Origin: Kayfunavirus AN24P4
Strand: one strand, 5' to 3'
DNA: 39,836 nt
Sequence record: OZ035739.1
The notes beneath the pieces were generated by a model. The model had not been told where the DNA came from and did no database searches. It was given only the letters and a program-made list of their open reading frames with translations. Of this stretch, positions 355-19,201 are shown one piece after another (position 1 is the first letter of the stretch; each line of letters starts with the position of its first letter). Position numbers and translations under genes: made by a program.

Positions 355-759
355 ATGGAAGGACAATATTTAAGCGGTGGTTATTATAAAGTAACTATCA
401 ATGGTAAGGTTCACGGGGTTCATCGGGTTAAATGGGAGACGGCGCATGGGCCAGTTCCGGCTGGCTACGTCATTGACCATATAGACCGGAACACTCTGAA
501 CAATGAGCTATCAAACCTAAGGGCAATACCTAAAGGCGCTAATGGTGCTAATACCTTATCGTCTAGAGAGTTACCAAAAGGAGTCTACTCACGGTTCGCT
601 AAAAGGCTTAACGCTACAGTGTACTATGGAGACATACGCATTGGTGGCATCAAGAGAACCCATGAGCCTACTACCAATCTACAGAAAGTTGAGGACTGGG
701 CTAAAGAGACCCACGCAAATCTTCTTAAGGAGGTGTATGGTGTGGTTAACGTTTATTAA
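355..759 (+). CDS. HNH homing endonuclease (free-standing), possible C-terminal AP2-like DNA-binding region
   Basis: 134-aa ORF with RBS ctaggaggg; HNH-type motif (VIDHIDRNTLNNELSNLR); AT-richer than flanking genes; inserted between gene 18 and the spanin gene. Confidence 0.75.
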   Translation: MEGQYLSGGYYKVTINGKVHGVHRVKWETAHGPVPAGYVIDHIDRNTLNNELSNLRAIPKGANGANTLSSRELPKGVYSRFAKRLNATVYYGDIRIGGIKRTHEPTTNLQKVEDWAKETHANLLKEVYGVVNVY

Positions 760-3985: not shown

Positions 3986-4230
3986 CACAAGGCTATAGAC
4001 TTAAGGTCTAAGACATGTTAGTCAAAGACTACATCCTCTTACACCATGGGGCCGACGATAGCTTAATCAATATTATTTCAAATTACCTATTGACTATAGG
4101 TCCAGATTATGGCCTAATAGCTTCCGTCAACACGACACGGCAACAACCGGATAGTGAAGACGCCTGGTCATCCCGGTTAAGTAGACAGCCTGATAAGTCA
4201 TACGAACAACAGGCAGATGACAGAAAGTAG

Positions 4231-16587: not shown

Positions 16588-18603
16588 ATGTTTGACCTTA
16601 AGAGTATCTGGGGTTCTGACATAGAGACCAACGGTCTCCTTGATACAGTCTCCCAGTTTCACTGTGGGGTCCTGATTAACGCCGAGTCGAATGAGACCCT
16701 TAAGTACGGGGTAGCTCCGATGGTCGGTATCGTCGGTGGCTTCAAAGAGTATGTTCATAAAGTGGAAGAGATTGCCGCATCGCCTGATGGTATGCTGGTA
16801 TTCCACAACGGTATCAACTATGACGTCCCGGCTATTGACAAGCTGAAGCGTCTGTACTTTGGGAAACGATTTAACTTCCCGAAACACAAGATGATTGATA
16901 CCTTGGTGCTGGGTCGCTTGATGTATCCAAACATTAAGTTCTCAGACATGGGCGCAGTGAAATCTGGTCGTCTGCCACCTAAGATGATGGGACGCCAGTC
17001 TCTTGAGGCTTGGGGCTATCGTCTCGGTGAGATGAAAGGTGAGTACAAACACGATTACGTTGCCAAGTGCAAGGCTGAAGGTATCGAATATAAGGCTGGG
17101 GACGAATGGTTGTTCCCGTCTCAGGAGATGCTGGACTATAACGTTCAAGACGTTGTGGTCACACTGGCGTTGTTCAAGAAGTTCCTGACTGACAAGTATT
17201 ACTTCCAGTCTGAACAGTTCGCTTTCGACCAGATTTATGCGTTGCGTCTGGAACATGACGCTGCTTGGACCTGTGCGAAGATGGAGCGTAACGGCTATCC
17301 GATGAACACCGAGATGGTTGAAGGCTTATATCGTGAACTCACCGTCAAACGTGCGGAGCTGCTGGACAAGCTGCGTTCGACTTTCGGCAGCTGGTATGCA
17401 CCAAAGGGAGGCAAGGAGTTCTTCAGGCACCCACGGACAGGTAAGGACCTTCCGAAGTATCCGCGAGTCGTGTATCCTAAGGTCGGGTCAGTATTCAAGA
17501 AGCCGAAGAACAAAGCTCAACGCTTAGGTCTGGAGCCTTGCGAGTTCGACTCACGAGACACGATGGAGGGAGCACCGTTCACACCTATCACTTACGTTGA
17601 GTTCAATCCGGGGAGCGGAGACCACTTAGCGAAAGTCTTGATGGAGCGTGGCTGGGAACCTGTGGACTTCACTGACACCGGGAAACCTGTAGTCGATGAC
17701 GAGACGTTAGAACACGTTAAGTTGCCAGACGAAGAGGCTCAGGCTTGCGTAGAGCTGGTCCGTGAGTATTTGGTAGTCCAGAAGCGCATCGGTCAGGCTG
17801 CTGAAGGTAAGAACGCATGGTTGAAACTTGTAGGCCCAGACGGACGTATGCACGGTTCAATCAACCCTTGTGGTGCAGTAACAGGACGTGCGACCCATAG
17901 CTCACCAAACATGGCTCAGGTTCCTGCTAACGGTGCTCCGTATGGTGAGACTTGCCGTGGTGCTTTCGGTGCAGCGTGGAACAAGAAGGACGGTGAGCCA
18001 GACCCTTGGATTCAAGTAGGCGTGGATGCTTCAGGTCTTGAGCTTCGTTGTCTGGGGAACCGAGCGGCTCCGTTTGATGGTGGAGACTATGCGAAGACTG
18101 TGGTCGAAGGGGACATCCACTGGGCCAACGCAGTAAACGCTGGGTTAGCACCTAACGTCCCACGCGATAAGTCGAACCACGACCATGAGGCTTTCCGCAA
18201 CAACGCCAAGACGTTCATCTATGCGTTCCTGTATGGCGCAGGGGCCGCTAAGATTGGACTTATAGTCGGCGGTGGTAAGAAGGAAGGTTCAGCTCTCATG
18301 AAGAAATTCATTGAGGGTACACCAGCCATCAAGGACCTCAGGGAAGCTGTGAGTAATACGTTAATATCAGACTCTAAGTGGGTGGACGGTGAGAACATCG
18401 TCAAGTGGAAACGCCGCTGGCTGAAAGGTCTAGATGGTAGACGTATCCACATCCGGTCGCCACACTCAGCACTTAACGCTCTACTTCAGGGTGATGGTGC
18501 GGTAGTCTGTAAGCACTGGATTGTCGAGACCGAGCGTATGCTGGAAGCCGAAGGATATGTCCACGGCTGGGATGGAGACTTTGCGTACATGGCATGGGTG
18601 CAT
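16588..18603 (+). CDS. DNA polymerase (T7 gp5-like), exon 1
   Basis: Start at ATG 16588 after ggagg; collinear with T7 gp5 (SDIE.N.LL, FHNG..YDVPA, KSGRLP, NP.GAVTGRATH, DASGLELRC, KTFIYAFLYGAG, DGDFAYMAWVH) but the frame ends at TAA directly after ...AWVH, 51 codons short of the T7 C-terminus. Confidence 0.9.
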
Positions 18604-19201
18604 TAACATCATGGTGCACATTAAATCTGGTGAACTCGGTGAACTCCTAATGGGACAATACCGAGCCAAGCCATAGGGAGGATGTATGAGAGGCAAGAAG
18701 TTAATTCTTGAGGCCACTGAGACTGGCTGCATAATCCCTACGTCACATAAATTGAATCAGGATGGATACTTCCGAAAGAGGACTAACGGTGTCCTTGAGA
18801 TGTATCATAGAACTGTATGGATTAAAGCTAATGGTCCAATACCTGAAGGTTTCGAAGTAGACCACAAGTGTCGGAATAGAGCTTGTTGCAACGTCGAACA
18901 TCTACAAGTATTAGACCGGGACTCACACTTAGTAAAGACCAACCAAGAGCGATACGCTGCTAGGAAGCTAGAAGCACGAGACTACTGGGTAGATACTGGG
19001 TGTACTGGAACGAAGTTAGCCGAAATATTCAATGTGTCGTTCTCAGCCGCCTGTGGGTGGATTAGGGAGTGGAAGGCGTAGAGACTATCCGAAAGGAGTA
19101 GGGCCGTGGGTGAGATTCCCACGTAACCCGAAGCGCCAGACAGTCACCTCAAAGACTGATGATATAGTCCGACACTTCCAGTAATGGGAGAATACAGAAA
19201 G
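18604..19201 (+). mobile_element. intervening sequence in the DNA polymerase gene, probably a self-splicing group I intron carrying an HNH endonuclease ORF
   Basis: About 598 nt between in-frame exon 1 end (...GTG CAT) and exon 2 start (GAT GAG...); last exon-1 base is T (U) and last intervening base is G, as at group I splice sites; contains an independent ORF with its own RBS; AT-rich. Confidence 0.7.
18686..19081 (+). CDS. HNH homing endonuclease (intron-encoded)
   Basis: 131-aa ORF with RBS gggagg; HNH-type motif (EVDHKCRNRACCNVEHLQ); lies entirely inside the intervening sequence in a different frame from the polymerase. Confidence 0.8.
   Translation: MRGKKLILEATETGCIIPTSHKLNQDGYFRKRTNGVLEMYHRTVWIKANGPIPEGFEVDHKCRNRACCNVEHLQVLDRDSHLVKTNQERYAARKLEARDYWVDTGCTGTKLAEIFNVSFSAACGWIREWKA

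Follow-up and report, generated by a model that had tools for sequence, protein, structure and literature searches.

A probable homing endonuclease gene of the HNH_3 type at the gene 18/18.5 junction of Kayfunavirus AN24P4

The HNH gene and the junction it occupies

The window analysed here is the whole 39,836 nucleotide (nt) stretch of Kayfunavirus AN24P4 in sequence record OZ035739.1. Near its left end, between the small terminase gene (gene 18) and the gene for an Rz-like i-spanin (gene 18.5), lies an open reading frame (ORF) at 355–759 that encodes a 134 amino acid (aa) HNH endonuclease (ATG at 355, stop codon at 757–759). It is on the plus strand, as are the signals, domains, cassette, patch, hairpin and flanking genes 18 and 18.5 described below. 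The position between terminase and spanin genes, given in an initial annotation made from the sequence alone, was borne out by profile matches of the neighbours to PF11123 and phrog_1351 on the left and to phrog_1327 on the right. A Shine-Dalgarno sequence, GGAGGG (346–351, read from the sequence), ends 3 nt 5' of the start codon, and the GGAGG-N4-ATG spacing is common to the related phages BUCT788 and IME321. The ORF had been described as AT-richer, which is true only mildly: its GC content is 0.447 against 0.499 for the genome, at the 5.7th percentile of 405 nt windows.

The predicted protein matches the Pfam family HNH_3 (PF13392) over residues 21–64 (positions 415–546), with an E-value of 1.9e-16 and 59.9 bits against a cut-off of 24.8. 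It is also matched by PHROG HNH families (best 2.9e-21), and the HNH_3 profile is matched by all 17 of 17 homologues. When aligned by phmmer to I-HmuI (PDB 1u3e), residues D41, H42, N54 and N63 fall on D74, H75, N87 and N96, and all four are invariant in the family alignment of 17 homologues. In I-HmuI, D74, H75 and N96 are reported to act as general base and metal ligands (Shen et al. 2004). The AlphaFold2 model from the 17 homologues (mean pLDDT 88.5) predicts a beta-beta-alpha fold that resembles those of solved HNH homing enzymes. The protein is predicted to be a metal-dependent nuclease with an intact active site.

The C-terminal half (residues ~74–128, positions 574–738) is predicted to form an AP2/ERF-like DNA-binding domain. 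In the model, strands at 77–82, 87–96 and 99–106 and a helix at 109–128 give the AP2 topology, a three-stranded antiparallel sheet packed on one helix that can be superposed on solved AP2 domains. The possible AP2-like C-terminus proposed earlier is therefore retained as a predicted fold but not as a sequence family, as the Pfam AP2 profile (PF00847) found no match at E<=1 in the HNH protein or in 16 homologues. Homing endonucleases with an HNH domain followed by a C-terminal AP2 domain are an established class (PMC10448857, citing Magnani et al. 2004).

The most closely related record is Kayfunavirus T147P5 (98.4% identity over positions 1–1300 by megablast), which places the window in Kayfunavirus, among the K1F-like relatives of T7. 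The ORF is absent from the close relatives pO2 and IME177, which are 98.5% identical to the window over 1–345 and 97–100% identical from 821 on (96–100% over both flanks when the patch at 758–820 is set aside), and from Milel, whose flanks are 91–100% identical. Empty alleles (pO2, IME177, Milel and T7) were aligned with filled alleles (T147P5, YZ1, BUCT788, EclP26, IME321, Sekstaphage-1 and pO111), which defined the cassette boundaries to within a few nt. The presence/absence cassette extends from 346 to 757 and comprises the Shine-Dalgarno sequence and the HNH ORF. Its left boundary is just 3' of a hairpin, at 345/346 or after the GGAGG common to YZ1 and pO2. The right boundary, at 757/758 by comparison with the Milel empty allele and the filled alleles, coincides with the HNH stop codon. 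Judged from these alignments, the mobile unit is essentially the HNH ORF itself.

In the empty allele, the place of the cassette is taken by ~52 nt (pO2 locus ~658–709), CGACTCTACGTGAAATCTGATAAACCGGGAGGGCAACTATGCTCGAATTTTT, which hold the native Shine-Dalgarno sequence of Rz and its first five codons, MLEFL. The initial annotation gave the gene as inserted at the gene 18/18.5 junction, and the locus is right, but the alignments indicate a replacement rather than a simple insertion: ~52 nt were swapped for an ORF that brings its own Rz initiation region. Comparison with insert-less relatives had been proposed as the way to define the homing site, and pO2, IME177 and Milel delimit the replaced segment. 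A 24 nt intergenic segment of pO2 that MAFFT aligned with an internal HNH segment was considered as a remnant of HNH deletion and rejected as spurious, as the same segment is normal in the empty regions of T7 and Milel. The cassette accounts for a length polymorphism between near-identical isolates.

The Rz gene (737–1177; phrog_1327, 2.3e-53) starts inside the HNH gene, and the overlap of the HNH 3' end with the Rz start codon, also noted earlier, amounts to 23 nt. The Rz translation initiation region, AAGGAGG-TGT-ATG (727–739, read from the sequence), lies within the HNH codons for ...KEVYG, with its Shine-Dalgarno sequence AAGGAGG at 727–733 and the Rz ATG at 737, such that the last HNH codons (...L-K-E-V-Y-G...) double as the Shine-Dalgarno sequence and start codon of Rz. 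This arrangement is conserved. The C-terminal ...(K/E)E(V/T)YG... codons give a GGAG-type Shine-Dalgarno sequence and, a few nt later, ATG-G in the Rz frame, and the YG codon pair (TAT GGN) that holds the Rz ATG is kept in the seven HNH-bearing loci aligned, of which six are intact and one is the frameshifted copy in fPS-53.

Rz begins MVWLTFIKR... in the window and MLEFLKR... in empty alleles, and in filled alleles it always begins with MV, MG or ME, not ML, because the cassette replaces the Rz initiation region with its own. Approximately seven Rz codons (those from the ATG at 737 up to position 757, where the cassette ends) come from the cassette, compared with the native five. Judged from the sequence, Rz keeps its reading frame and an initiation signal but acquires a different N-terminal tail. 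The one neat feature of this element is that its 3' end is dual-coding and re-initiates Rz; by bringing along a ribosome-binding site and a start codon for the lysis gene downstream, the cassette illustrates how a selfish gene can keep the cost to its host phage to a minimum.

Immediately right of the cassette, a patch at 758–820, in the Rz transmembrane segment, is variable. Here the window is 65% identical to pO2, 95% to the HNH-less Milel and 90.5% to the HNH-bearing EclP26, and the neighbouring segments are 97–100% pO2-like. The patch exists as two alleles that are ~65% identical to one another, and forms a sharply bounded mosaic within flanks that are 97–100% identical; both alleles are found in HNH-less phages. 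It was considered as a possible co-conversion tract, but could not be accepted as a proven one, as the allele in the window is common in HNH-less phages, e.g. Milel (95–96%).

On the left, the small terminase gene (gp18-like; 30–293; PF11123 3.1e-12, phrog_1351 1.2e-34) lies outside the mobile unit, and its product is 100% identical in the HNH-less pO2 and IME177. It is followed by an RNase III-type hairpin at 293–344 that is shared by filled and empty alleles. The hairpin has a predicted stability of -23.4 kcal/mol (z=-3.8), and none of 200 shuffled sequences was as stable. It aligns with the gene 18/18.5 intergenic region of T7 and is kept in T7, pO2 and all HNH-bearing loci aligned, which upholds the earlier placement of the ORF just 3' of an R18.5-like hairpin. 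The R18.5 RNase III site of T7 lies in that intergenic region, although the T7 record carries no such annotation, and by analogy with T7 the hairpin at 293–344 may be processed by RNase III. A consensus scan of 1–1300 for a promoter or terminator belonging to the HNH gene gave no more sites than shuffled sequence, and Rfam at gathering thresholds returned no match in the whole window. Downstream of Rz is a T7-type large terminase gene (1167–2936; PF22530).

Distribution and history of the HNH gene

The HNH gene was found in only ~7 of the 221 related phage records that match positions 1–1300 of the window; the carriers among them are T147P5, BUCT788, TM1, PDP351P3, YZ1 (two records) and vB_EclP_26. 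The gene is therefore far from universal in relatives, and universal presence was the observation that the initial annotation had named as arguing against mobility. A 67-mer spanning the empty site, on the other hand, occurs in at least 297 records from many genera.

When the HNH protein was used as a tblastn query, ~169 records with at least 60% identity were returned. Among the 60 records listed, the match abuts Rz in 57 (identity at least 67%), wherever genes are annotated there, and the three weakest matches (33–36%) are not beside Rz. The gene is found at the same junction in Kayfunavirus, Przondovirus (many Klebsiella phages), Teetrevirus, Teseptimavirus and Helsettvirus. The allele in the window represents a rare lineage, near only to T147P5 (98.5%) and to one Logan metagenome cluster (98%, 15 member sequences).

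Across the five genera, the HNH proteins share 68–74% identity with that of the window, compared with 45–100% for gp18 and 43–60% for Rz, and outside Kayfunavirus the flanking proteins are only 43–53% identical. By non-synonymous divergence (dN), the HNH gene of BUCT788, itself a Kayfunavirus, is nearer to that of a T3-like phage (0.16) than to that of the window (0.20), and the HNH gene of the T7-like phage pO111 is nearest to that of Klebsiella phage IME321 (0.145). From these comparisons, the history of the HNH gene is decoupled from that of the flanking genes and incongruent with phage taxonomy.

The proportion of non-synonymous differences (pN) among the HNH genes is ~0.18 and synonymous sites are saturated, with ratios of non-synonymous to synonymous divergence (dN/dS) of 0.065–0.081 where they could be computed. 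Purifying selection of this strength (dN/dS ~0.08) implies long-standing maintenance of HNH protein function. In the Yersinia phage fPS-53, a 1 nt deletion has truncated the ORF (locus coordinates 601–995), and this orthologue is a decaying copy, as a cycle of invasion and decay would predict.

The Escherichia phage pO111 has an intact 134 aa orthologue (locus coordinates 592–996) that is unannotated in its GenBank record. Many Przondovirus genomes (e.g. p9676, P19 and 150004) return between two and four separate tblastn matches to the HNH protein each, so that the family is probably present at several loci per genome.

A second HNH gene, said in the initial annotation to be intron-encoded, is present elsewhere in the window. 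A 599 nt insert (18594–19191) that is lacking from pO2 splits the DNA polymerase gene after ...AYMAWVH, and inside it is a second HNH_3 ORF (18686–19081, 131 aa, E=7.1e-16) with a product 27% identical to the HNH protein encoded at 355–759. The HNH gene in the polymerase insert is thus confirmed, but the group I intron model (RF00028) matches the insert only below threshold (35.6 bits where Rfam requires 50; E=2.6e-7). The alignment of pO2 to the window crosses the ends of the pO2 record at approximately 4096–4098, from which it follows that the window is a rotated whole genome starting at gene 18; on this alignment, the physical genome ends are probably near 4.1 kb.

Homing and its alternatives

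The gene at 355–759 is probably a functional free-standing homing endonuclease gene of an HNH_3 plus AP2-like class. The proposal in the initial annotation that such a gene occupies the 18/18.5 junction is supported by the HNH_3 match, the sporadic presence, the decoupled history and the conserved catalytic residues. Presence/absence polymorphism, horizontal spread and a decayed copy were all found. A gene that, on the sequence evidence, is sporadic, locus-specific, horizontally spread and occasionally decaying has the classic signatures of a homing endonuclease gene.

We envisage late transcription of the HNH gene on a read-through class III message, with cleavage at the R18.5-like RNase III hairpin that immediately precedes the ORF and translation of the ORF from its own GGAGG. 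In a co-infection with an HNH-less relative, the monomeric enzyme would bind through its AP2-like domain and nick or cut in or near the ~52 nt segment of the empty site (CTACGTGAAATCTGA...GGGAGG...ATGCTNGAATTTTT). HNH-bearing genomes would be immune, as that segment is gone from them. Phage recombination would repair the break with the HNH-bearing genome as template, so that the gene, and at times an adjacent flank, would be copied. The HNH gene would thereby spread, and the neighbouring markers of the competitor would be excluded.

Across genes 18–18.5, no stretch is better conserved between T7 and pO2 than the replaced ~52 nt, which has 74% identity compared with 50–60% in the coding flanks and includes a core, CTACGTGAAATCTGA, that is identical at 15/15 positions. 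This makes the empty-site segment a candidate cleavage target, which carriers would have lost.

Several points weigh against homing, or against this target, as set out above. The empty site may be conserved simply because Rz translation initiates there. The target of a free-standing homing enzyme is often at some distance from the gene for the enzyme. The patch at 758–820 could have come from an EclP26-type donor by co-conversion but is no proof of such an event. "AP2-like" is a statement about the predicted fold of the C-terminal half, with a modest Z and no profile support, and dsRBD folds score nearly as high as AP2 against the same predicted structure. Purifying selection over saturated synonymous divergence could mean that the gene has a benefit to the phage other than homing. 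Literature searches returned no experimental study of this HNH gene or of an orthologue at the 18/18.5 junction, and for this protein cleavage, target site and homing are all inferred from sequence.

The gene might once have been mobile and have lost homing, being kept since by the Rz start signal that it provides, or carried as a neutral passenger through ordinary homologous recombination. With the Rz Shine-Dalgarno sequence and ATG inside the ORF, imprecise loss would be harmful, the copy in fPS-53 is frameshifted, and general recombination has evidently acted at the mosaic joint that the gene occupies. However, Rz needs only the last ~30 nt, yet the whole 134 aa protein is under purifying selection and its active site is invariant, and spread across genera, with the HNH protein at 70% identity compared with 45% for the flanking proteins, would be hard to achieve by flank homology alone. 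We regard loss of homing as improbable.

The long-term purifying selection could also be accommodated if the protein had been domesticated as a nuclease or DNA-binding protein of direct benefit, either by excluding competing phages or satellites or through regulation by the AP2-like domain, with homing secondary. AP2 and other DNA-binding domains of homing endonucleases have been co-opted for regulation and in phage-satellite conflict (PMC10448857), and the late expression proposed above would coincide with that of the lysis and packaging genes. Any strong benefit of a general kind is hard to reconcile with the rarity of the gene among close relatives, neither a partner nor a target was found, and cutting of a competitor at the allelic site would be mechanistically the same as homing; domestication is a very unlikely explanation.

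A role as a terminase-associated packaging cofactor like HK97 gp74, acting in DNA end formation or on terminase nuclease activity, is suggested by the position of the gene between the small- and large-terminase genes and by HK97-like phages, in which HNH proteins encoded beside terminase genes take part in packaging (PMC8861465, citing Kala et al. 2014). Such a role is highly improbable. The gene is missing from ~97% of related records, some of them from phages whose terminase genes are near-identical, and T7, with an empty 18/18.5 junction, packages its DNA in the absence of any protein of this kind. The HNH belongs to the HNH_3/I-HmuI homing type and is accompanied by a separate DNA-binding domain. 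The large terminase (gp19) is also of the T7 type, matching PF22530 and, marginally and just below the cut-off, Terminase_6N; a match to Terminase_1, with which the HK97 gp74-type cofactor is associated as cited in PMC8861465, was absent at E<=0.001. This agrees with the initial annotation, which did not expect a packaging role with a T7-type terminase.

Broader extensions of the homing interpretation can be imagined. The ~52 nt segment could be a shared recognition site for jumps between genera, the alleles of the 63 nt Rz patch could be footprints of repeated invasion, co-conversion and loss or variants conferring target immunity, the junction could be a site of long-running conflict that generates local mosaicism in T7-like phages, and the 3' end could have evolved specifically to re-initiate Rz. 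These we consider speculative and rather unlikely.

As a homing endonuclease gene, the element marks a genetic-exchange hotspot in the lysis/packaging block of T7-like phages that serve as therapeutic and model phages. The practical value of this is modest and a specialist would not be surprised by it. With flanks that are 91–100% identical (for pO2, apart from 758–820), the window phage and pO2 or Milel form a clean natural pair in which HNH-AP2 homing could be tested in a T7-type system.

Comparison with known systems

The kind of element described here is already known. Several orthologues at the 18/18.5 junction carry the GenBank/RefSeq label "HNH endonuclease" or "homing endonuclease", among them Escherichia phage YZ1 gp38 (YP_009798560.1), BUCT788 XTB81138.1, IME321 gp45 (YP_009806253.1), Sekstaphage-1 p41 and that of Enterobacter phage vB_EclP_26_048. 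All share the gene 18/Rz locus, a length of 133–134 aa, the overlap of the 3' end with the Rz start and 68–74% identity.

Another HNH gene of Kayfunaviruses, that of Hafnia phage Ca and Citrobacter phage CR44b (PMC8861465), is likewise free-standing, in the lysis/packaging block and overlaps both of its neighbours. However, it lies one gene further along, between Rz and the large terminase gene, and encodes a different protein of 143 aa. Genomes of Hafnia phage Ca with and without the HNH gene coexist in one stock (PMC8861465). Some Kayfunaviruses, BUCT788 among them (locus position 1484 onward), have an additional small gene in the interval from Rz to the large terminase gene; in Hafnia phage Ca and CR44b it is the HNH gene just described. 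The block from holin to terminase seems to be a hotspot for such insertions.

Among the proteins of T7 itself, gp7.7, an annotated HNH endonuclease, is also a small HNH_3-like protein of the Studiervirinae and is 45% identical to the HNH protein over 40 N-terminal residues. It differs in its locus, between genes 7.3 and 8, and the similarity is confined to the N-terminal part. T7 gp5.3 was also considered as a relative and rejected, as it has no similarity to the HNH protein.

I-HmuI of Bacillus phage SPO1, to which the catalytic core was aligned, is an intron-encoded HNH nicking enzyme of 174 aa with a helix-turn-helix C-terminal domain. By comparison, the HNH protein of the window is free-standing and shorter (134 aa), with a reduced N-terminal region and an AP2-like C-terminus, and by analogy with I-HmuI it may be a nicking enzyme. 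In domain organisation it is like the HNH-AP2 family, exemplified by the "IPA-HNH" proteins of ICP1 phages (Barth et al. 2023, PMC10448857), which also combine an N-terminal HNH with a C-terminal AP2-type domain and whose genes are also free-standing in phage genomes, at boundaries of genetic exchange. The two differ in both domains. The HNH protein of the window, unlike those of the ICP1 phages, matches the canonical Pfam HNH_3, and its AP2 domain is recognised by predicted fold rather than by the Pfam AP2 profile.
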